From Escherichia phage vB_EcoM-172859UKE1: 64,000 nucleotides of DNA. The position numbers and the translations under genes are program-made. The notes beneath the pieces were generated by a model, which was not told the DNA's origin, ran no database searches, and saw only the letters and a list, made by a program, of their open reading frames with translations. The stretch is taken from sequence record MZ234025.1. One strand, given 5' to 3'. Positions 2,543-63,641 of the stretch are shown here, piece after piece (the first letter of the stretch is position 1; each line of letters starts with the position of its first letter).

Positions 2543-2836
2543 ATGAAATCTATGCTTCGCTTTAATGGTCAAGAACTAGTAGTTGAAGATGCTATCCCAG
2601 CGGATGATGTTTTTAACGAAGCTGTGATTGACGAATTGAATCGAGTATTCCCAGGTGCATTCCATATTGCTATGGAACCTCTTAAAAACTTTCGTGACCC
2701 TGAGCACACTGATCAAATTTTTATCGGTGTAGTGACAGGTCATTTAGAAACAGAGGTACCAATGGTCGTATTAGTTAAATACTCTAAAGATGATACTCCA
2801 TTCCGAGCACCAGCATTCCTTTCATTCCGTAAATAA
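2543..2836 (+). CDS. hypothetical early protein (97 aa)
   Basis: ATG 2543 with GAGGAAAA RBS; track ORF 2471..2836 starts further upstream inside the promoter. Confidence 0.55.
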   Translation: MKSMLRFNGQELVVEDAIPADDVFNEAVIDELNRVFPGAFHIAMEPLKNFRDPEHTDQIFIGVVTGHLETEVPMVVLVKYSKDDTPFRAPAFLSFRK

Positions 2837-2845
2837 ACCCCTAAA

Positions 2846-2869
2846 GGGAGACGTTGTCTCCCTTTTTTT
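2846..2869 (+). terminator. rho-independent terminator (GGGAGAC-GTTG-TCTCCC + T7)
   Basis: Perfect stem plus T-run, between convergent genes. Confidence 0.65.
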
Positions 2870-2871
2870 CC

Positions 2872-3834
2872 TTATAGTCCTAAAACTCTTGACGCAGAAT
2901 TCACCACACCTGTCAATGTGTTTATATTAGACACACCTCCAGCAGTCCCACCTAATCTAGAAAGTCTTGATACTGCACTTCCTAGACCAGAATCATTCTG
3001 ATTATTTCCAAACATTCCTGAAACACTACTAATAAGTCCTGATTCCAGCCATTCTAAAGCAGCCTGTCTATTTACAGCACCTGATTGCATAACGCGATAA
3101 GCAAATGTTACATCAAAAACTGTTATCTGATTATCACCATCATACGTTAACTCAGGAGAAGAGACACTAACAGGAATACATCCGGTGAACATGACAGCGG
3201 TATGTGGTAAACCATTTCGTGCATGTAAATTAACCTGAATATCTGCTTCGACATCTTGTGGTAAAGCACGAAGACCTGTTACAGGGTCTTGGACCGAGTT
3301 TACCCAGTCTTGCATTGCTCTAAAGTTAGATGCTTCGGAATCCATTCTAAAGCTTATTACTAATGGGTCCATTTCTCGGCCGGTAATTCGGATGTTCGGT
3401 GAGTTATAGTTGAAATCCGTTTCATAAGATAATCGGTTCTCAGGCATTTTTACAGAATAAATCATTAAACCTGTATTATTATATGCCATATTGAAGAAAT
3501 CTATCAGATAAGATCCTACTGTGAACTCACCTAACAAGCTTTGTACCGTACGTTGACTCATTGCTCCAATCAGATATTTACTTATACCTGATTTTCGAAT
3601 TAATTTCTGTGTTCCTGCTGTAATCAGGGTTGTTACGCCCTGATTGATATCACCTTGAGTCAATCCTAGCCAATCGGAATCCAACCCTAAGTTATTATAA
3701 GCAAAACTACCAATTGACGAAATTAGTGAAGATGATTTGGTCGATGGCGTAGTAGCAAATACACAACTAAACATATTGTTTCGTTGGAAATCTGCATTTA
3801 TAGCTTGGTTATTAAATTCTTCTAAAGAGTACAT
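2872..3834 (-). CDS. 54: baseplate tail tube initiator gp54
   Basis: 320 aa, same as T4 gp54; synteny 54-48-29. Confidence 0.8.
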   Translation of the reverse strand: MYSLEEFNNQAINADFQRNNMFSCVFATTPSTKSSSLISSIGSFAYNNLGLDSDWLGLTQGDINQGVTTLITAGTQKLIRKSGISKYLIGAMSQRTVQSLLGEFTVGSYLIDFFNMAYNNTGLMIYSVKMPENRLSYETDFNYNSPNIRITGREMDPLVISFRMDSEASNFRAMQDWVNSVQDPVTGLRALPQDVEADIQVNLHARNGLPHTAVMFTGCIPVSVSSPELTYDGDNQITVFDVTFAYRVMQSGAVNRQAALEWLESGLISSVSGMFGNNQNDSGLGSAVSRLSRLGGTAGGVSNINTLTGVVNSASRVLGL

Positions 3835-7254: not shown

Positions 7255-8374
7255 TTTTAACCTTAACTGGGTTAACAGGTTCTAACACCATTGAGTTGGT
7301 AAACATGTACAGATGAGTTTGTGAGTTGTTATTTGATAACTCATGAATAACTTCATCGACGTAAAATTCGGATTTGAATTGGTTCTTTTGGTCAACAAAT
7401 ATAATTTTAGTAGCAGGCGTTATGTTAAAATTACCTGTAGTAGTGCATTTAGCATATCCGTCATATTGGGCCATTGTCTGAAGACGACTTGCTTCTTCAA
7501 ATCCATTACGATAGGTCATTTCGGAATATCCACCGGATCTTGACACAAGAATAGCATTATCACCATCGCCTGTAACAATAACCGGAATAGATGTATCTAA
7601 AAATGAATGGGCGAATATCGTGGCGTTTTTAATAGGGTCTCTTGTAAATTGGTTAGCTTTAGTCATCCAGGTGAAATCCCATACTAATGGATACTCAAGC
7701 TCTTGAATATACTGACCTACGGTATTTGGCTCGCCTACAACCATCTTAATGCCTTCTTGACCAATAAGAGTATCGTAGTCAATCATGTTTACGCCTAAAA
7801 TATCTTGCCATACGAATACGAACTTATCACTCGCTGTAGCAAGTCCTAATTCTCTGACATATGCCAAATAATCATCAAATGTGCTTGTCCAAGGAATATC
7901 AGGAACATAAGCATTAATAGTGTTTATTGGCGGAGTAATTAACGTACGGTCTTTATATATGACACCTAACATTTCACGTATAGATTCTCCTGCGTCTGGG
8001 AAGAATGGTCGCCCAAATTTAAGGTTCTCTATAGAATGTATTGTTCCAAGCTCAATTGCAATAATATTGTCACCTTTTGAGTCCACAGACACAGAATAAT
8101 GTCTACATCCGTAAATTCGAGTTCTAACTTGGAGAGGTGTGTTTGAATTTGAAACAGAGATTTGGACTATCTGTCTACCATCCATTTTAGTGTGGATGTT
8201 TTTAGTGTCATAAAATTGAAGAATCCCTTCATTTCTTCCATATAACGAATCTCGCATGGTTAAAGTTGTTATTGTTGCCGCGAGTTCAACGTATCTATTT
8301 TCTTGCCAAGCTGAATAATCTTGGTATAATTTAACGCTTAAGTTAGGATATCCTGGACGTTGGAATACTGTCAT
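7202..8374 (-). CDS. 27: baseplate hub subunit gp27
   Basis: 390 aa (T4 gp27 391); synteny. Confidence 0.8.
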
Positions 8375-9123
8375 TTTTTATGGTCCTTTTCTACTAATGT
8401 TAAAGCAATACCACGTTCAACAGGAATCATTTGCATAATAGAATCCAATGTGTATTGACTCTTTACTAGTGAATGGTTTATCTGATAGAATGTAAAAATC
8501 TCATCAGGGTTAACTAACAATTTAAAAACCTCTAAGATATCAGTATATGTTTTAACATGACGTTCACAACAACCTAATCTAAGGGTCAAATTAATAGGGT
8601 TCATAGAAGCAATAACCTTCTCGAGCGAGTCAATGTCTATTGCTTCTATTACTTGGATTTGGTTCTCTTCAGTCAAATCATTCCATGGGTACCATTCATC
8701 ATTATAATATATTTCTTTTATGTTTTCACTTATCATTAATGCCTTGTTGTCATAAAACTTTTCAGGGAAAGAAAAACGTATTTTTATACCAGCAACATCA
8801 AGTTCAGGTTCGACTAGTTCTTTTTGATATATCTCAAATGGTGCAGTTTTTTCTTTAGAGCATTTAGGGCAAGTGAAAATAACGGGAACTTTTGTTTTGC
8901 CTATAGAGCCTGCAAAAACTTGCAGGAATATAAATGGTTGCCATGTTTTAGGGTACTCGCCAAAATAATCATCAATCAGATCGGCAATTATTTCTTTTTG
9001 TTCTTGCGGCGAACGATGTTCGATATCATTTCTAACTAGTAAAAAGTCTCTATAATCCGCCACAGTGAACGGCTTAAAACGATGAACACCATCCGGTAAT
9101 TTACAACGAATTATATTAGCCAT
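8371..9123 (-). CDS. 51: baseplate hub assembly catalyst gp51
   Basis: 250 aa (T4 249); synteny. Confidence 0.75.
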
Positions 9124-9140
9124 AATTACTCCTTTTCTAT

Positions 9141-9148
9141 TATTTATA
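9141..9148 (-). promoter_or_regulatory. late promoter TATAAATA (minus strand) for gene 51
   Basis: Plus strand TATTTATA = TATAAATA on minus, 18 nt upstream of gp51 start. Confidence 0.7.
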
Positions 9149-9152
9149 AATA
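9145..9152 (+). promoter_or_regulatory. late promoter TATAAATA for gene 26
   Basis: Exact TATAAATA 19 nt upstream of gp26 ATG; overlaps divergent gp51 promoter. Confidence 0.7.
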
Positions 9153-9170
9153 CACAATAAAGGAGTTAAC

Positions 9171-9797
9171 ATGTACAAATATACGTTTACCGTACGTTTA
9201 GGCGATAAAGAAGTGAATTGTAGAGCCTTTACTTTAAAAGAATATTTAGGACTCATAGGTGCGCGGGCTACCGGTACTATTGAATCAGCAGTGAACAATA
9301 TTATCACTAATTGCTCTAACGCTAAAAACTTGACTAAACAAGAAGCCGAGTTATTGTTGGTAAATCTGTGGGCACATTCGTTAGGTGAAGTGAATCAAGA
9401 ACACACCTGGAATTGTTCCTGTGGGCATTCATTTCAAGTCTATATGAATTTATTGCACACTCAATTAGATGAACAGGCCGATCCCTGGTATTCGTTTAGT
9501 GGTATTAAAATTAAGTTCCGTCAACCTAAATTATTTGATGATAAAAATATCGCATTAATGATTGCTTCATGTATTGAGGCTGTTTTTGTCAATGGAGAGT
9601 CCATCCCTGTTGAAGATTTAACTGAAGCAGAAATAAACGACCTTTACGGCCTTATAACAGAAGATGACATGATCAATATTAAAAATCTTTTGGTATCACC
9701 ATCAATTTATCTGGCAACCCCTATTAAATGTCCCAAATGCGGGGCGTCACACGTTCACACAATACGAGGCCTCAAAGAATTCTTTGAGTTACTATAA
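9171..9797 (+). CDS. 26: baseplate hub subunit gp26
   Basis: 208 aa as in T4; RBS AAAGGAG. Confidence 0.8.
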   Translation: MYKYTFTVRLGDKEVNCRAFTLKEYLGLIGARATGTIESAVNNIITNCSNAKNLTKQEAELLLVNLWAHSLGEVNQEHTWNCSCGHSFQVYMNLLHTQLDEQADPWYSFSGIKIKFRQPKLFDDKNIALMIASCIEAVFVNGESIPVEDLTEAEINDLYGLITEDDMINIKNLLVSPSIYLATPIKCPKCGASHVHTIRGLKEFFELL

Positions 9798-20072: not shown

Positions 20073-20885
20073 TTAGAAACGAGATGCGACTTTCGCATAT
20101 AAACTTACATTAGAATTCTGTTCTACCTGAGTTGTGGTAGTGTCAACTGCTTCGGCAACAAAATTAAGACCGGCAGCGTCATTGTCAACTGTATTTATAC
20201 TTTCGGTAATAGCGGCTTCTTCTTTAGTAGAACCTTTAACCATTTCTACAATAGCAGTTAACTTAGTACCAAATGCGTCAGAATAATCCATACCTTCAAC
20301 CAGGCCAATAACTTTTTCTTTCTGAGATTCAGTCAGGTCTTTTACGCTTTCATTAATAGCGGTTTCACGCTGAACGTAATTGATATATGCATCACGTTTG
20401 GTAACTTCTTCGAACAAACGAGCGGTTTCTTCTTTATGTTCGGCCAGCTCTTCTTCCATTTCTGCTACAACATCTACAGATTCTTCTGGAACAACAACGT
20501 TATGTTCAACAAACAGTTCTTTCAGACCACCAAGCATGGATTCGAACAAATCAGCTTTAATGCCTTTATCAACTGCGATTTGGTTTTCTGCGAGCCATTC
20601 TTTTGCAAGATGGTCTAGGAATTTAGAAGCTTGTTCAGCCAATTTTTTATCAGCTTTCTCTTCAGCATCTTCTTTAGCCTTTTCAACTTCTTCTTCGGCT
20701 TTTTCGGCGATGGCTTTGATATGAGATTCAGCCAGTTTGACTGCTTCCTGCTTAACGGTGGCTTCGAATACAGTGCTGAAATTAGCTTTAACGTCCGGAG
20801 ACAGTTCTACTGATTCGAAAACACTATTAAGAGCAACTGAAGTCTCGATGTTCTGAGCTTCTTTCAAAAGTTGTTCTTTGATCAT
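20073..20885 (-). CDS. 22: prohead core scaffold protein gp22
   Basis: 270 aa (T4 269), acidic coiled-coil composition; synteny. Confidence 0.8.
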   Translation of the reverse strand: MIKEQLLKEAQNIETSVALNSVFESVELSPDVKANFSTVFEATVKQEAVKLAESHIKAIAEKAEEEVEKAKEDAEEKADKKLAEQASKFLDHLAKEWLAENQIAVDKGIKADLFESMLGGLKELFVEHNVVVPEESVDVVAEMEEELAEHKEETARLFEEVTKRDAYINYVQRETAINESVKDLTESQKEKVIGLVEGMDYSDAFGTKLTAIVEMVKGSTKEEAAITESINTVDNDAAGLNFVAEAVDTTTTQVEQNSNVSLYAKVASRF

Positions 20886-20915: not shown

Positions 20916-20923
20916 TATTTATA
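20916..20923 (-). promoter_or_regulatory. late promoter TATAAATA (minus strand) for gene 22
   Basis: TATTTATA on plus strand 31 nt upstream of gp22 start, overlapping gp21 3' end. Confidence 0.6.
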
Positions 20924-21560
20924 ATGCTTTTAAACTCTCTGCGAGAGCTTTAAATGCTTCGTCAGCACTGTTTTTGGTGATTTCCACCGAATTTTCTGAT
21001 TCTGATATTTGTTTAGGAGTAACCCAAGCATCTGGAGCAGAAGGTCCCCATACGGCATCTACGCCGACGGTTAATTTAAATCCTTCGTTCACGATACGGT
21101 ACCCTTTATTGGTGTCGGTTAAAGAACCAAGACCACGAGAGGAAACACCTGGAATCCAACCAGCTCGTATATTAGCAGCTAATTTATCGCCGGGACCGTG
21201 GTCGCCTTCAATAATTCTAGCACGTCCATATACATCGTTTCCTTTCCACCACATATCTTCAATAATGATAGCGGCTTGCATAGGGTCAACATTTGCACGA
21301 GGTGGATGGTTTAATTCTCCAAGGGCTTGTTTGGTTGCGACTTGTTCTTTAATATAGTCACTTACTGCTTTTTCCAAAACACGTTTAGGATATAAACGTT
21401 TATTTCGGTTAACAACCTCTGCCTGAAGAAAAATACCTTCTATATAAAGCCCTGGTTTTAAGCCAGAATCTTTTCCATCATGAGATTCCAACATTGGAAC
21501 GCCATCAATAATCTCACCGGGTTGACCCCAAGTTTCAATAAGTAACTCGGGTTTATTCAT
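20919..21560 (-). CDS. 21: prohead core protease gp21
   Basis: 213 aa (T4 212); synteny. Confidence 0.85.
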   Translation of the reverse strand: MNKPELLIETWGQPGEIIDGVPMLESHDGKDSGLKPGLYIEGIFLQAEVVNRNKRLYPKRVLEKAVSDYIKEQVATKQALGELNHPPRANVDPMQAAIIIEDMWWKGNDVYGRARIIEGDHGPGDKLAANIRAGWIPGVSSRGLGSLTDTNKGYRIVNEGFKLTVGVDAVWGPSAPDAWVTPKQISESENSVEITKNSADEAFKALAESLKAL

Positions 21561-21985
21561 TAGCTTAATCCTAATGCTTTACGACGTTTAAGAGCCTTTT
21601 TACGCTTACGCAAGCCTTTAACTTGGCCTGAAGGGTTAGCTTTTTTAGCTTTAACGACCTTACGAGCGATTTGTCTACGTTTTGCTTTAGAAAGACCAGT
21701 TGTTTGGAACGCGTTACGTTCACGAGTTTTACGGTCTTTAGTGCGGGTGACTTCACCACGAGAAGAAACATGTTTAACGATAAACTCATTTAACTGTTCT
21801 TCATTAATAATGGAAGCCATTGCAACAGCTAAATCCGTTTCAGTTTCAAGCATGTTCTCGATAATAGTATTTATATCGTCAATATCGAGAGCAGAAGACA
21901 ATGCATCGATTCGGCCCTGTGCTTCAGGAATAAGTGCTTCGACATTTTCGAGTACCAATTCATAAGATTCAGGGATAAGATACAT
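21560..21985 (-). CDS. 68: prohead core protein gp68
   Basis: 141 aa as in T4; basic C-terminus. Confidence 0.65.
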
Positions 21986-22221
21986 TATTCATCGTCCTCA
22001 TCATCTTCGTCTTCGTCGTCATCGCCTTCATCAGCGTCGTCTTCCGAAGCTTTAGCTTTCTTTTCTTCTTCAGGTTCTTCGCCTTCAATCAAAAATTGAG
22101 AAGCGATTTCTGCTTTGCGTGCTTCAATCAAACAAACCGTTTTTTCTGCCATTGCACTTTCAAAAAACTTTCGAGTAGCAACGAGGTCGTTTGATTTAAT
22201 AGCTTGAATTAAATCGTCCAT
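21985..22221 (-). CDS. 67: prohead core protein gp67
   Basis: 78 aa, poly-acidic C-terminus; synteny. Confidence 0.65.
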
Positions 22222-24480: not shown

Positions 24481-26463
24481 TTAGGCACCTACAGCACCAA
24501 TTAGTTCGTCGAAATCGGCACCAGTTGCTGTTGCTACAAAGTTCAACGTAATATAATTTATCGAGCGGGCAGGTTGTAAGTAGAAAGTAGCTACAAATTC
24601 ATTACGGTCGATAACTGCTGGTGTGTTATTGGTAGTATCACAAACAACTTTAAAGTTATATACACCACCGAGAGCTTTAATACCCTGTAGATATTGAGAA
24701 GTCTCTGTACGGAAAGAAGAACGGGTAAATGCGTTGTTCAATTCAAACAGGCGATATTTAGATGCTGAACCAATGTTCGTTTTAACCATATTGAACAAAC
24801 GACGAACGTTAATACGGTCAAATGGTGAAGGAACAGAAGTGGCAGTTTTATCACCATACAGAACATACCCATCACCACCGGTACCAGTAACAGGGTTAAT
24901 AGCTTCCTGGTACAAACGATCACGCTGCGCTTGGCGAGTTTCAATTGCAAGCTTAATAACGTTAAGAATTTGCCCACGGTTATAACCGGCAGGAGACATC
25001 CAAGGCTGAGAAATATTGTCTGTGCGAGCACAAAGACCGGCAATATCAGCAGCTAATGGAACCCAACGATTCACATCATTATATTTGTCATATTGATATT
25101 TATAGTTACCGTCAATAGCAGCATAAGTAGAACTTACATTAAAGTTATTATCAGTGTAAGTTCCTGACGCAGTACGCCAATCAACCAGATTATCAACTGC
25201 ACGATTAACAGGAATACCGACTATAGTTGCACGTGGTGGTGAGCAAAGAACCAAGCAATCTTGGCGAGAATCACCAATTGCTACAACATGTTTCTGAACT
25301 GTAGAAGCAACTTCTAAAGATTCACCTGCACAAGAACCAGCAATAAACAACTGCGCATTAACAGATTCACGGTCAGCAAACAAATCCCAAGCTTCCATTA
25401 AATCACCAGCGTCAACAGTTTCATTAGATGATAAGCCGCCGCCCAGTTTGATTACGCCAGAGAAACCTTTTGGCCAACCTTGTGCAGTAGCGAAAATATA
25501 ATTGCTTGCGCCTTTAGCAAAGAAATCATCAATAAAGATATTACTACCATAAATATCGCGTTCACCACGTTTAGTAGAAAGAACTACACTCTGGACTACA
25601 GCATCGTTACGACGAACGATAATTGCATATTGGTCATCAGTTTGTGGACCATACCCAAAGATTGCTTTAGCCGTAGATGCACGAGTACCACCATCAGGAT
25701 AAATTTTTAACTGGGCTGAAGCACCTTTGTCATAGTCTGCTTTAGATACGATTTCAATTTCGAGCTGGTCGCCAAGTTCACCAGGATAAAGAGCAACTAC
25801 GCCTGGGACACCATATTTTTTAATAGATTCTTGGAAAGTTAGAGAAGTAATAGCTTCTTCAGAAGTTTCAACTTCAGTTAACAAAATACCCGAATCGGTT
25901 ACGATAGAACCAATTGTAATAACGCCAGAGAGACCAGAAGAAGAACTGGCAACTTCGGCGGTCCAGTTAGAACCCAATGCCGGATATTCATTAATTTCTT
26001 TTGCACGAGCAATAATTTTACCGGTTGGGATATAAATGTTACGAATTTTACCATCGACATCAACTGAAGTGACATAACCATCTGCTTCAACAGTTTCGGT
26101 CAAATACTTAACGATAATTTTATCACCAACTGCATAGTTACTACCAGCAGCAGAGATTGTGAATTCAATATTGCCTGCTACAGGAGATGAGTTCTTAGCA
26201 GTATCACGATCAACTGCGCGTACAACACGAAGGTCATTACCATATTGAAGGAAGTTCATAGCAGACATGAAATAATCTGCTGTATCCGTATTAGGAGTAC
26301 CAAACATATCAACCAATGCAACTTCATCAGTGATTTGTTTAATCTGGAATGCAGGTCCCCATTGGAATTTTCCAGCCAGGGCAGCAGTACCAGTGGAGTT
26401 ATTAACTACAGTACTCTGTACGGTAGTTTCTTTGAGCTCAACGCCCGGAGAGAGAAGTGCCAT
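24481..26463 (-). CDS. 18: tail sheath protein gp18
   Basis: 660 aa (T4 659). Confidence 0.9.
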   Translation of the reverse strand: MALLSPGVELKETTVQSTVVNNSTGTAALAGKFQWGPAFQIKQITDEVALVDMFGTPNTDTADYFMSAMNFLQYGNDLRVVRAVDRDTAKNSSPVAGNIEFTISAAGSNYAVGDKIIVKYLTETVEADGYVTSVDVDGKIRNIYIPTGKIIARAKEINEYPALGSNWTAEVASSSSGLSGVITIGSIVTDSGILLTEVETSEEAITSLTFQESIKKYGVPGVVALYPGELGDQLEIEIVSKADYDKGASAQLKIYPDGGTRASTAKAIFGYGPQTDDQYAIIVRRNDAVVQSVVLSTKRGERDIYGSNIFIDDFFAKGASNYIFATAQGWPKGFSGVIKLGGGLSSNETVDAGDLMEAWDLFADRESVNAQLFIAGSCAGESLEVASTVQKHVVAIGDSRQDCLVLCSPPRATIVGIPVNRAVDNLVDWRTASGTYTDNNFNVSSTYAAIDGNYKYQYDKYNDVNRWVPLAADIAGLCARTDNISQPWMSPAGYNRGQILNVIKLAIETRQAQRDRLYQEAINPVTGTGGDGYVLYGDKTATSVPSPFDRINVRRLFNMVKTNIGSASKYRLFELNNAFTRSSFRTETSQYLQGIKALGGVYNFKVVCDTTNNTPAVIDRNEFVATFYLQPARSINYITLNFVATATGADFDELIGAVGA

Positions 26464-50563: not shown

Positions 50564-50594
50564 GTTTACATAAGGATGATGGTGTGTTACTATC
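50564..50594 (+). promoter_or_regulatory. T4-type early promoter cassette with inverted repeat (GATGAT/ATCATC)
   Basis: AAAACAGTTTACA -35 region, -10 GTTACTAT. Confidence 0.6.
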
Positions 50595-50627
50595 ATCCTA
50601 TCAAATAAACAACCTCAAGGAAATAAA

Positions 50628-50915
50628 ATGAAAACTTATCAAGAGTTTATATCACCTATTGCTAACGTTTCTACTCTGACCGAAGCAACCCTTACTTCCG
50701 AAGTTATTAAAGCAAATAAAGGACGTGAGGGTAAACCAATGATTAGTCTGGCTGACGGCGAAGAAGTAAAAGGTACTGTTTACTTAGGGGATGGATGGTC
50801 TGCTAAGAAAGACGGCGCTACTATTGTTATCTCTCCGGCTGAAGAGACCGCACTGTTTAAAGCTAAGCATATTTCTGTAGCTCAGCTTAAAATTATTGCA
50901 AAAACTCTTCTGTAA
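50628..50915 (+). CDS. internal-protein-like protein with capsid targeting sequence (MKTYQEFISP..)
   Basis: 95 aa; N-terminal MKTYQEF matches the T4 IPI/IPII/IPIII capsid targeting sequence; occupies the ipI position next to 57B. Confidence 0.6.
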   Translation: MKTYQEFISPIANVSTLTEATLTSEVIKANKGREGKPMISLADGEEVKGTVYLGDGWSAKKDGATIVISPAEETALFKAKHISVAQLKIIAKTLL

Positions 50916-52594: not shown

Positions 52595-52939
52595 ATGAAA
52601 GGCAATATTTATCTGGTAGTTCATGACTTAACGTTTTATTTTAACGAACGTGAAACAGTTATTTCCGACCGGTTGATTAATTCGTTATATCAACACGCTG
52701 ATTACGTTTATTTCCAAAATGAATTTGGCCATTGGAAGTTTCTTAAAAACCGTTCAGGGTTAACTAGTTTTGAATACTTTGACCGTAAAGACCTTTTAAA
52801 CGAAATTCCATTACAACATCGGTTCCAGAAACGCGAATCACTATACTATTGTCGTCATATACCAAATGCTGAATGTGTTAATGAAGCGATTAATCTATGG
52901 CGGCGGCGTCGAGAGCAAATTGATGATATGCCAAAATAA
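52595..52939 (+). CDS. hypothetical protein (114 aa)
   Basis: ATG 52595 with GAGGAAAA SD just after tRNA-Arg; track ORF overlaps the tRNA and is rejected in favour of this start. Confidence 0.5.
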   Translation: MKGNIYLVVHDLTFYFNERETVISDRLINSLYQHADYVYFQNEFGHWKFLKNRSGLTSFEYFDRKDLLNEIPLQHRFQKRESLYYCRHIPNAECVNEAINLWRRRREQIDDMPK

Positions 52940-53099
52940 GAAGCCGGGTCGCTACCGGCAAGTCGTCGGACTGATGTTCCCTGAGTAAGGACTGGTCTTA
53001 ATAAATCTTTACGATTTGTTAATATCCCCTTACATCACAGCAGAAACGGCGCACCGAATTATCGATTCGAGGAAATATCTTTGCCGTAAGCCGAGTAGC

Positions 53100-53200
53100 G
53101 TTTTTGACGGAACGTTCGGATATGGTCGAGATATGGCCTTTTAAAAATATTGAGTAGCGTCAACTGCTTAATAACCGGGTTCGAATCCCGGCGTTTCGTA
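53100..53200 (+). ncRNA. tRNA-like structured RNA (canonical T-arm CCGGG-TTCGAAT-CCCGG; possible small stable RNA or degenerate tRNA)
   Basis: Perfect T-arm at 53175-53191 with putative acceptor pairing CGGAACG(53108)/CGTTTCG(53192) giving 92 nt, but no convincing D or anticodon arm. Confidence 0.3.
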
Positions 53201-53250
53201 CAAACACTTGCCTTAGCAGGTGGAACCCCGACAAGGTTGCCGCAAGGCTT

Positions 53251-53278
53251 AGCCCCTTCCGAAAGGTCGGGGCTTTTT
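53251..53278 (+). terminator. rho-independent terminator (AGCCCCTTCC-GAAA-GGTCGGGGCT + T5)
   Basis: Stem with GNRA loop plus T-run; same family as 11139 and 53795. Confidence 0.6.
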
Positions 53279-53323
53279 GGCATAATAATAAATAGATAAG
53301 TTAATTAACTTAGGAAAAGCAAC

Positions 53324-53788
53324 ATGAAATCATACGCTGAATTTTTGACTGAACAATCTAGTTCAGATGTAAAAGCCGCTGCGATTGCAGCAATTCAAGC
53401 AGGTAAATATTCTTACAAAGACGCCTCTGATGAAGAACGTTTCCGTTTTATTAGAGATTTTAAAGCCGAAGGTTTTACTAATGCTAATACTGTTAGCCGA
53501 GTTTTTAAAAGCCTAGCTGCATCAGGTGAATTGTTCCAGAAAGCTACAGGTAAAGCACCTGCGCCAAAAACAGACCCTAAAGCAGCTCAAGAAAAAAATA
53601 TCGCCAAAGGAATTATTTCTAAGTATGAAGCAATTCTTAAAGAGCTTTTAGTAATCAAAACAGAAGGCCAGAAACTGGCACGAGCACATAGCTTCAAAGA
53701 TAATCCTCACGCTCATAGCCTTGAGTATGTTGAAGATATCCAAAAACTTATTAAAGACCGTATCTGGTCTGCTAAACAAATTAAATAA
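53324..53788 (+). CDS. internal-protein-like protein with CTS-like N-terminus (MKSYAEFLTEQ..)
   Basis: 154 aa; N-terminus resembles the capsid targeting sequence with an L-x-E site. Confidence 0.5.
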   Translation: MKSYAEFLTEQSSSDVKAAAIAAIQAGKYSYKDASDEERFRFIRDFKAEGFTNANTVSRVFKSLAASGELFQKATGKAPAPKTDPKAAQEKNIAKGIISKYEAILKELLVIKTEGQKLARAHSFKDNPHAHSLEYVEDIQKLIKDRIWSAKQIK

Positions 53789-61546: not shown

Positions 61547-62035
61547 ATGAATATATTTGAAATGCTTCGTAATGACGAAGGTCTTAGACTGACTTTATAC
61601 AAAGACACTGAAGGCTTTTGGACGATTGGCATAGGCCATTTAGTAACAAAGAACCCGTCTTTAGCCGTAGCTAAAGCTGAACTTGACAGAATGATCGGTC
61701 GTAAATGCAACGGTACAATTACCCTTGATGAGGCTGAAAAGCTATTTAATGAAGACGTTGATAAAGCCGTTCGCGGAATCTTGGGTAATGCTAAACTTAA
61801 ACCGGTATACGATTCTTTAGATGCGGTTCGTCGATGTGCATTGGTCAATATGGTCTTCCAAATGGGTGTAGCAGGCGTCGCCGGTTTTACTAATTCTCTT
61901 CGTATGCTTCAACAGAAACGTTGGGACGAAGCGGCAGTAAATCTAGCCCAATCTAAATGGTATCGTCAGACACCTAATCGCGCGAAACGCGTAATCTCAA
62001 CATTTAAAACAGGAACTTGGAAAGCGTATATATGA
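61547..62035 (+). CDS. e: endolysin (T4 lysozyme e)
   Basis: 162 aa; near-identical to recalled T4 lysozyme ([27 protein letters not shown]; catalytic E11, D20, T26 present); track ORF starts 12 nt upstream. Confidence 0.95.
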
Positions 62036-62313
62036 AAACATATAGTGAATTTTTATCAGAATCTATTCTTAGCGAAGCTACTGACACATTTGCAACTAAG
62101 CTAGGTGCAGCTTTGGTTGAAGCTGAAAGTCTATTAGCACGTATTTCTGAACTTGCTAGTAAGATAGATACTCGCAAATTTGAGCGCACTAGTGATATCG
62201 TTAAGCTTGAAGCATTGTTGCGCATGTGCGATAAACCGGAAGAAATCGCTAAGAACGGCTCTCTAATGAAACAACGTCTTGAAAAATATATTTCAGGCGC
62301 TTCAGAAAAATAG
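62032..62313 (+). CDS. internal-protein-like protein with CTS ([11 protein letters not shown]..)
   Basis: 93 aa; ATGA-coupled to e; N-terminal capsid targeting sequence. Confidence 0.6.
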
Positions 62314-62314
62314 T

Positions 62315-62344
62315 GTTTACTTCCTCCAAGAGTTTTGATACTAT
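62315..62344 (+). promoter_or_regulatory. T4-type early promoter cassette upstream of denV
   Basis: GTTTAC 62315-62320, TACTAT 62339-62344. Confidence 0.6.
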
Positions 62345-62371
62345 ACATTCATCAACTACTTGGAGGAAATT

Positions 62372-62785
62372 ATGACCCGTATCAATTTAACACTTGTTTC
62401 TGAACTGGCCGACCAACATCTTATGGCTGAGTATCGTGAATTACCTCGTGTATTCGGTGCAGTCCGTAAACATGTCCAAAACGGTAAACGTGTAAAAGAT
62501 TTTAAAATCTCTCCAACATTTATCTTAGGCACAGGTCACGTAACATTCTTTTACGACAAACTCGAATTTTTACGTTTACGACAAATCGAGCTAATCGCTG
62601 AATGTTTGAAACGTGGTTTCAAAATCAAGGACACGACAGTCCAGGATATTTCCGACATCCCTGCCGAATTTCGTAATAATTATGTCCCGTCCGAAGCGTC
62701 CATTGCGATAAGTCAAGCACGCTTAGATGAAAAAATTGCTCAACGTCCGACTTGGTACAAATACTATGGTAAATCAATTTACTAA
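62372..62785 (+). CDS. denV: endonuclease V (pyrimidine dimer DNA glycosylase) DenV
   Basis: 137 aa; near-identical to recalled T4 DenV ([34 protein letters not shown]...). Confidence 0.9.
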
Positions 62786-62791
62786 GGAAAA

Positions 62792-62908
62792 ATGAAAATG
62801 TATCAAGAATTTATCATTGAAGCAGATGCCAAAGGTCCTAAAGTAGATGTTGACGATATTGGATACGATTTTAACAACTTCGGAATTATTTCTGGCGGTA
62901 AAGCTTAA
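62792..62908 (+). CDS. mini internal-protein-like ORF (38 aa) with CTS-like start MKMYQEFIIE
   Basis: ATG 62792 with GGAAAA SD; below track cutoff; could be a remnant. Confidence 0.35.
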   Translation: MKMYQEFIIEADAKGPKVDVDDIGYDFNNFGIISGGKA

Positions 62909-62911
62909 ATT

Positions 62912-62941
62912 GTTTACGCTTAAGTATTAATATGGTATAAT
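62912..62941 (+). promoter_or_regulatory. early promoter (GTTTAC-N18-TATAAT)
   Basis: GTTTAC 62912-62917, perfect TATAAT 62936-62941. Confidence 0.6.
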
Positions 62942-62971
62942 TACTCTATCAAAACAAACAAGGAAACAAAA

Positions 62972-63286
62972 ATGAAAACGTATAAAGAATTTATTGCAGA
63001 ATCCGCCAACCAACGCGTTGAAGGCGGTTATATTTGGATTGAACAAGTTGAACCACCGAGCCGCACTTCTACAGGTAAATGGAAAATTACTGTTGATGGT
63101 CCTGGTGGTAAACGTAGGACCCTTAAAGAAATTAATGGGTACTATGAAGAAGCTCTTTCGGATGCAGGAACTTACATGATGCAAATCATGATTAAAAACC
63201 CTGAAAACCGTTTTGCAGCTAAAGTCTTCCGTCGCATCGGTAATAAACTTTATGATGCATACTCTAAAAACTTCCCTAAAGAATAA
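62972..63286 (+). CDS. internal-protein-like protein with CTS (MKTYKEFIAES..)
   Basis: 104 aa; N-terminus matches the T4 IP capsid targeting sequence. Confidence 0.6.
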   Translation: MKTYKEFIAESANQRVEGGYIWIEQVEPPSRTSTGKWKITVDGPGGKRRTLKEINGYYEEALSDAGTYMMQIMIKNPENRFAAKVFRRIGNKLYDAYSKNFPKE

Positions 63287-63311
63287 CATAAATTAAAACA
63301 ATAGGAACAAA

Positions 63312-63641
63312 ATGAAAACGTATCAAGAGTTTATCACTGAAGTTACATTATCTGCGGAACAGAAAGCTGCTATCGAAGAAGGTAAAAATCCCAAAGTAAC
63401 ATATAAAGTAAATAGTAAAGGCGTTTTTGATGGTTTGGTTCAAGACCCTGAATTGAAAAAAGCTCTTTCTAAAACTAATGCGTACTTTGCTCCTAAATTT
63501 AACACAGCCGGTGTACTTATTGGATTGGATGTATTCAACTCTAAAGGTGTTCTATCTAGTGCCTTTGGTTATGCCGCTAACAAAATTACCAAAGCTGCAT
63601 GGGAATCCAATACCAAACAAGCTCAAAAGCCTAGAGTATAA
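63312..63641 (+). CDS. internal-protein-like protein with CTS (MKTYQEFITEV..)
   Basis: 109 aa; CTS N-terminus. Confidence 0.6.
   Translation: MKTYQEFITEVTLSAEQKAAIEEGKNPKVTYKVNSKGVFDGLVQDPELKKALSKTNAYFAPKFNTAGVLIGLDVFNSKGVLSSAFGYAANKITKAAWESNTKQAQKPRV

Follow-up and report, generated by a model that had tools for sequence, protein, structure and literature searches.

Introduction

The internal proteins IPI, IPII and IPIII of bacteriophage T4 are small and mostly basic proteins sharing an N-terminal capsid targeting sequence (CTS; the tag) with an L/I-x-E site and relying on a head-assembly machinery that includes gp21 and gp22; their genes are arranged in the order e-ipIII-ipII-denV, with ipI lying separately. 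Here, we analysed a stretch of 64,000 nucleotides (nt) from Escherichia phage vB_EcoM-172859UKE1 (sequence record MZ234025.1; the whole stretch is called the window), in which six open reading frames (ORFs), designated by their start positions 50628, 53324, 62032, 62792, 62972 and 63312, begin with this tag. We consider it likely that all six encode T4-type internal head proteins, which are targeted by the tag, cut by gp21, injected into the host and probably block variants of host nucleases. The best matches of the region are Mosigvirus (RB69 group) genomes, e.g. UGJNEcP1, SSE1 and APCEc01, with identities of 97.5-98.5%, and the window is, judged by this identity, Mosigvirus (RB69-like, T4-family) sequence. 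In the protein collection searched, five of the six tagged proteins have exact counterparts from vB_EcoM-172859UKE1, whereas the 38-residue product of 62792 has no entry there.

The functions described for the closest systems are highly specific. Each of the T4 proteins Ip1, Ip2 and Ip3 inhibits its own GmrSD type IV system without cross-protection, and related phages encode 'at least 10' internal proteins (Silas et al. 2025, PMC12373910). IPIII is required on ECOR17, and a tag-less version produced by the host is effective (Srikant et al. 2022). The targets extend past GmrSD, as the tagged protein Bas37_0260 of Tequatrovirus Bas37 inhibits McrBC (HIDEN-SEQ preprint 2025, 10.1101/2025.11.20.689424). 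According to the summary given in PMC9026906, residues 4 and 7 of T4 IPIII determine targeting and residues 8 and 10 processing (Mullaney & Black 1996).

A wider parallel is found in the ejection/inner-body proteins of the giant phages phiKZ and SPN3US and in T4 Alt, all of them being packaged into the head, processed at x-x-E sites by the prohead protease and delivered into the host, as we propose for the proteins of the window; the giant-phage proteins differ from the latter in having other propeptides, in being much larger and in belonging to other phage families. Diverse internal proteins sharing just this tag have reportedly been described since 1994, by Repoila et al. in EMBO J. Published work already covers the class with its tag and protease step, its cassette diversity and the proposed anti-restriction role, and in this sense the finding is already known. 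New here, at a modest level, are two conserved tagged families, i.e. those of 53324 and 63312, which are unlabelled as internal proteins in the records examined, and the position of 53324, which marks a third, post-tRNA locus absent from the 'two Ip loci' description.

Results

Conservation of the N-terminal tag

Scanning all six frames of the window with the pattern MK.Y.EF yielded exactly six matches, all on the + strand and every one of them located at an ORF start, 2-16 codons past the upstream in-frame stop. By chance, 0.013 matches per window are expected from triplet-block shuffles and 0.009 analytically, and the six CTS-bearing candidates named in a preliminary description of this DNA were thereby confirmed. 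Tyr4 and Phe7 are present in all six leaders, and five of the six proteins carry [LI]-x-E at residues 8-10. The exception is 50628 with I-S-P at this position and LTE at residues 17-19, the place at which T4 IPI has ITE; the L/I-x-E site named in the earlier description lies further downstream in 50628 than in the other five. The residues kept in the leaders, Tyr4, Phe7, L/I8 and Glu10, are those occupying the targeting and processing positions of IPIII as PMC9026906 summarises them.

The mean pairwise nucleotide identity of the six genes amounts to 0.73 for codons 1-10, 0.41 for the 30 nt upstream and 0.31 for the following 30 nt. In the tag itself, identity is lowest at the third position of the codons (0.61, compared to 0.84 for second positions) and synonymous codons vary among the six genes, while the upstream regions have little in common except a Shine-Dalgarno-like GGAA element. 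This distribution over the codon points to a constraint on the tag acting at the peptide level. Taken together with the low identity outside codons 1-10, the shared element is therefore best described as a ten-residue peptide ending exactly at the Glu and not as a common ribosome-binding region, and the possibility raised before that the N-terminal similarity reflects a shared translation-initiation region is made unlikely by this comparison.

The tag is moreover retained on diverged orthologues, namely on P0080 (34% identity to 63312) and on two homologues of 53324, bas37_0244 (75% identity) and the protein of Klebsiella phage KP01, which starts with MKFKEFLAE. Since the tag persists on these proteins, their sequences argue against a recent accident of fusion. 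Using a degenerate DNA pattern for the tag in IMG/VR, we obtained at least 144 distinct tagged ORFs falling into at least 56 body families, all six genes of the window included. Among the IMG/VR matches listed (120 stretches), ORFs as long as 610 residues on environmental contigs likewise begin with the exact tag.

Unrelated bodies behind a common tag

The bodies following the tag were described before as being unrelated to each other, and this view is supported here. All-versus-all BLASTP of the bodies showed no detectable similarity among the six proteins of the window. PHROGs assigns 62972 and 63312 both to phrog_3966, each body matching that profile separately. We rejected a paralogy of these two proteins, BLASTP finding nothing, hhalign giving a probability of 0.2 and the Smith-Waterman score being equalled by 12% of shuffles. 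As these tests show no homology, phrog_3966 is treated here as what it looks like from the sequences, a mixed profile. A homology to the McrBC inhibitor Bas37_0260 was likewise rejected: the tag and the type of locus are shared, and the body of Bas37_0260 shows no relationship to any of the six. The profile search of the bodies proposed earlier returned IPI_T4 for 50628 only, the relationships to Ip10 and Ip5 resulting from clustering and homology; the other five tagged proteins have no match in Pfam and hence stand outside IPI_T4. For the four full-length bodies other than IPI, no informative match came from sequence searches of PDB, Pfam and a set of 1.84 billion representatives.

Head-assembly genes encoded in the window

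The prohead serine protease gp21 is encoded at 20919-21560 on the - strand (Pfam Peptidase_S77, E 2.9e-107) and would be the enzyme removing the tags. Next to it, the major scaffolding core protein gp22 is found at 20073-20885 (- strand; Pfam T4_CASP, E 1.5e-89), and [LI]xE sites are numerous in gp22. Two ORFs between gp21 and gp20 (21560-22221, - strand) occupy the positions of the minor prohead core proteins gp68 (141 residues) and gp67 (78 residues), and their counterparts in UGJNEcP1 are annotated 'prohead' and 'head scaffolding protein'. The portal protein gp20, gp23 with its conserved maturation site LTE/A (the slash marking the cut here and below) and Alt are encoded as well, Alt (397-2484) being without the MKxYxEF tag. 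With gp21 and the core genes present, the apparatus required for capsid targeting is therefore available in the same sequence. The proposal of a T4-type CTS cut by gp21 thus holds in those parts that a sequence can address, i.e. the determinant residues are kept and both gp21 and gp22 are encoded in the window.

The ipI locus

The gene at 50628-50915 (+ strand) encodes a protein of 95 residues which is, by sequence, the IPI orthologue. It matches Pfam IPI_T4 (PF11634, the GmrSD inhibitor IPI*) with an E value of 1e-49 over all 76 positions of the profile. The body shows 93% identity to T4 IPI, and PDB 2JUB, the solved structure of mature IPI*, aligns with residues 20-95. Its long leader of 19 residues, MKTYQEFISPIANVSTLTE/A, predicts a mature IPI* of 76 residues. 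From the 93% identity to T4 IPI, we infer by analogy that it would inhibit a type IV restriction nuclease. An early-type promoter match is found upstream of ipI at about 50566-50600, similar to the one described below for the Ip10 gene.

The e-denV neighbourhood

Four tagged genes, all on the + strand, lie around gene e, encoding lysozyme (61547-62035, + strand), and denV, encoding endonuclease V (62372-62785, + strand), the latter separating the first of them from the other three.

The first gene (62032-62313) encodes a protein of 93 residues of the RB69ORF127c type with a mature isoelectric point (pI) of 6.3, assigned to phrog_3499 'internal head protein'. In the ORF list it extends to a TTG at 62017; the ATG at 62032 and the TGA that terminates gene e share nucleotides (ATGA, 62032-62035), an arrangement suggesting translational coupling. 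It shows 48% identity over 84 residues to bas37_0261 (E 1e-23), the 90% cluster of which is named Ip5 of T6 (Q38630_BPT6), and 47% identity to the 'ipV' gene of phage GiZh. By sequence, 62032 is an Ip5 homologue and not an orthologue in the same locus. Its leader consists of the ten-residue tag followed by SILSE/A, and residues 15, 30 and 40 mark three additional [LI]xE sites. The true cut may be located after Glu15, a prediction made because the Ip5 homologue carries a longer, IPI-like leader (MKTFKEFATKTTITE/S).

The second gene (62792-62908), with the tag MKMYQEFIIE/A, is a remnant encoding 38 residues. Alignment to APCEc01_179 revealed it as a 144-bp in-frame internal deletion of an internal head protein of 86 residues (phrog_2667), with an AAG microhomology at the junction (compared to 2794-3054 of the comparison sequence). 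The full-length form is present in 205 of 217 phage records; the short allele is common to UGJNEcP1, UGJNEcP2 and PhAPEC2, has its own PHROG (phrog_35655) and is probably decaying. The preliminary description had counted four ORFs here as tagged proteins; all four do carry the tag, and this one represents a deletion allele instead of a full gene.

The third gene (62972-63286), encoding 104 residues with the tag MKTYKEFIAE/S and a mature pI of 9.6, shares one 90% cluster with CAA84455.1, 'Ip10 [Enterobacteria phage Pol]', the two being near-identical across 95 residues, and its family is annotated Ip10 in SP18 and VR7. By these matches, 62972 is the Ip10 of Repoila 1994. RB69 has a C-terminally altered copy of 90 residues. 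The structure model of 62972 has a predicted local distance difference test (pLDDT) score of 49, too poor for a fold comparison.

The fourth gene (63312-63641) encodes a protein of 109 residues of the RB69ORF123c type with the tag MKTYQEFITE/V and a mature pI of 9.7, whose family comprises 90 phage records. Searching the 1.84 billion representatives gave one full-length relative, the P0080 protein of WG01-type phages (119 residues, 34% identity, E 3e-7), which begins with MKTYQQFITES. The AlphaFold model (pLDDT 79.8) found no match in the PDB. The body contains an internal NSKGV repeat (YKVNSKGVFDG and DVFNSKGVLSS), and the repeat region gave weak phmmer matches to long repeat proteins with N-x-x-G-V-L-type motifs. 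In the databases, the families of 53324 and 63312 are called 'hypothetical protein' throughout, except for the ESCO10 homologue of 63312, which is annotated 'RNA polymerase ADP-ribosylase', probably wrongly; neither family is labelled internal protein. The database names tie neither 63312 nor 53324 to a named Ip, and a match to Ip4 or Ip6-9 may still hold. Downstream, the intergenic segment 63642-63825 folds no better than shuffles.

The post-tRNA gene

The gene at 53324-53788 (+ strand; phrog_2280) encodes a protein of 154 residues with the tag MKSYAEFLTE/Q and a basic mature form (pI 9.6), and it directly follows a block of tRNA-Met, tRNA-Arg and the rnaD/rnaC homologues. By tblastn, its family comprises 511 phage records in Tequatrovirus, Mosigvirus and Klebsiella Jiaodavirus, all called 'hypothetical' and always placed just past the tRNA block. 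The homologue bas37_0244 (75% identity) occupies the same locus and starts with MKSYTQFLNE; the one of Klebsiella phage KP01, again at this locus, has a nine-residue leader. In this Jiaodavirus homologue (1477-2010), the N-terminal half of the body is kept and the C-terminal half is unrelated, a pattern that suggests domain-level shuffling within an internal protein.

Bas37 (KarlGJung) carries two adjacent tagged genes past the tRNA block (8029-9191), bas37_0244 and bas37_0243, the latter encoding 187 residues with an unrelated body. Judged by this gene pair, the place behind the tRNAs acts as a third locus for internal proteins.

The segment preceding 53324 has features of its own. Near-identical homologues of rnaD/rnaC, the small stable RNAs of T4 (species 2 and 1), lie at 52938-53209 (+ strand) after tRNA-Arg and an ORF of 114-130 residues, and Rfam assigned no family at gathering score over this RNA stretch. 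The predicted fold of 52940-53323 is much more stable than those of shuffled sequences (z -4.8), with a tRNA-like T-arm (GGGTTCGAATCCCGG) and a terminator-like hairpin just 5' of 53324.

Variation among related phages

Compared to T4, the two classical neighbourhoods (57B-tRNA and e-denV) are the same, harbouring 50628 and 62032, respectively, whereas 62792, 62972 and 63312 extend the second one beyond denV. The order here is e-[62032]-denV-[62792]-[62972]-[63312], complemented by ipI and by 53324 past tRNA-Met, tRNA-Arg and the rnaD/rnaC homologues. Unlike T4, the window encodes no homologue of IPII or IPIII, its e-denV neighbourhood having four different genes instead, one before and three after denV, and the extra gene beyond the tRNA/rnaC block fills a position that is empty in T4 and that is occupied in common with Bas37 and KP01.

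In the nearest relative UGJNEcP1 (complete genome of 169.6 kb), the motif occurs only at these loci and five genes are tagged. UGJNEcP1 is 98.5% identical around e-denV, has a different tagged protein of 87 residues (25889-26152) in the place of IPI and is without a 53324-type gene; by sequence comparison, the difference at ipI is a cassette replacement between near-identical genomes. Bas37 has four tagged genes and none between e and denV; it carries homologues of 53324 (bas37_0244) and 62032 (bas37_0261), for neither of which a phenotype is given in the main text of the HIDEN-SEQ preprint (10.1101/2025.11.20.689424), and the Ip5 family represented by bas37_0261 sits at the ipI locus in this Tequatrovirus and at the e-denV locus here. 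The count of six tagged genes compared to three in T4, as stated in the preliminary description, is correct; six is at the high end of the genomes compared and not exceptional, and the variation is the classical polymorphism of these loci. The Ip4-Ip10 proteins of T-even phages fit into this picture, with 62972 corresponding to Ip10, 62032 being a 48% homologue of T6 Ip5 and the same cassette polymorphism existing among close relatives.

Discussion

Our data suggest a model in which the ten-residue CTS (19 residues in IPI) would bind each protein to the scaffolding core of gp22, gp67 and gp68 during prohead assembly and gp21 would cut after the Glu of the L/I-x-E site, i.e. after Glu10, after Glu19 in IPI and possibly after Glu15 in 62032. 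A small, mostly basic mature protein would be left in the head with the DNA and would be ejected into the cell along with it at infection. There, it would act before any phage gene expression, most probably by binding and blocking one variant of a nuclease attacking modified DNA, which in this phage is probably arabinosyl-hydroxymethylcytosine (arabinosyl-hmC) DNA. The predicted mature masses are 8.0 kDa (50628), 16.0 kDa (53324), 9.2 kDa (62032), 2.9 kDa (62792), 10.8 kDa (62972) and 10.6 kDa (63312), and four of the six mature forms have a predicted pI of 9.0-9.7, resembling T4 IPII and IPIII. For all proteins but IPI, i.e. five of the six, we infer packaging, cleavage, injection and an anti-restriction role. 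The proposal that such proteins are injected anti-defence effectors agrees with published work on the homologous systems Ip1-3 and Bas37_0260, and by analogy to these a one-to-one blocking of nucleases attacking modified DNA is the most probable function of the orphan proteins of the window.

Several observations weigh against this model. The late-promoter consensus TATAAATA is absent from the 200 nt upstream of every tagged gene, and the promoter sequence that matches best is of the early type, although head assembly needs the products late; this match, the best site of the region with 10 of 12 positions matching, is a sigma-70-like promoter (TTTACG, 17 nt, TG-TATAAT) upstream of the Ip10 gene (62913-62941, + strand). 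Against the GmrSD variants active in the hands of Silas et al., ip4-10 gave no reproducible inhibition (PMC12373910), and because of this panel the target of Ip10 may lie outside GmrSD. The literature searched contained no virion proteomics or N-terminal data for Mosigvirus internal proteins besides IPI, and the structure work on the window proteins gave no functional lead. Among the individual proteins, 62032 is near-neutral instead of basic and has extra LxE sites, and 62792 would leave a mere 28-residue peptide after the tag.

An unlikely alternative is that the proteins are packaged and processed as in our model but have a mainly structural role, acting as basic, lysine-rich counter-ions which neutralise and organise the head DNA and aid its ejection. 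The basic pI of four mature forms is what such a role would require, about 1000 internal protein molecules are present per T4 head, the lysines of internal proteins contact DNA phosphates according to solid-state nuclear magnetic resonance (PMC3012670), and the lack of reproducible anti-GmrSD activity of Ip4-10 is in line with it. Yet unrelated bodies and a turnover of cassettes between near-identical phages fit an arms race and not a generic charge function, the three T4 internal proteins as well as Bas37_0260 all proved to be specific restriction inhibitors, and 62032 is not basic.

It is considerably less probable that some of the six are non-functional remnants in a junk-tolerant locus. 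The clearest candidate is 62792, with 28 residues past the tag after its in-frame deletion, and 62032 or 63312 might perhaps be included; the Ip10 copy of RB69 is C-terminally altered, and several clusters contain truncated members. However, between 90 and 511 phage genomes carry each full-length family in intact form, and even the 38-residue allele is common to several phages.

Just as improbable is a shared N-terminus serving as a DNA-level module for translation initiation or for recombination during cassette exchange, with most products neither packaged nor cleaved: the 30 bp encoding the tag are the sole stretch common to the cassettes, and both the differences of otherwise near-identical orthologues at tag positions 3, 4 and 5 and the shift of the Ip5 family between two loci are consistent with recombination inside the tag, but the conserved block varies most at third codon positions, with differing synonymous codons, shares little upstream beyond GGAA, has its exact end at the protease-site Glu, keeps the residues that PMC9026906 reports as experimentally important for targeting and cleavage and survives at 34% body identity, and a role in recombination would be compatible with packaging and no substitute for it.

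As an extension of the model of packaged, gp21-cut and injected inhibitors, we tentatively raise the possibility that the 53324 type, which occupies the third locus in some 500 T4-like genomes, and the 63312 type, being nearly Mosigvirus-specific and without a PDB-like fold, are undescribed injected effectors with targets outside the tested GmrSD and McrBC systems, e.g. defences recognising the arabinosyl-hmC DNA of RB69-like phages.

Targets are known for four body families (Ip1, Ip2, Ip3 and Bas37_0260) compared to at least 56 tagged body families. The window adds no new principle to this; it offers a compact set of five orphan candidates, two of them unflagged in databases, for the kind of plating and pull-down experiments by which the targets of Ip2 and Ip3 were solved. 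Arriving with the phage DNA, internal proteins can act before phage gene expression and thereby help to decide which strains T4-like phages can infect, which is of relevance for host-range prediction and for the choice of therapeutic phages.

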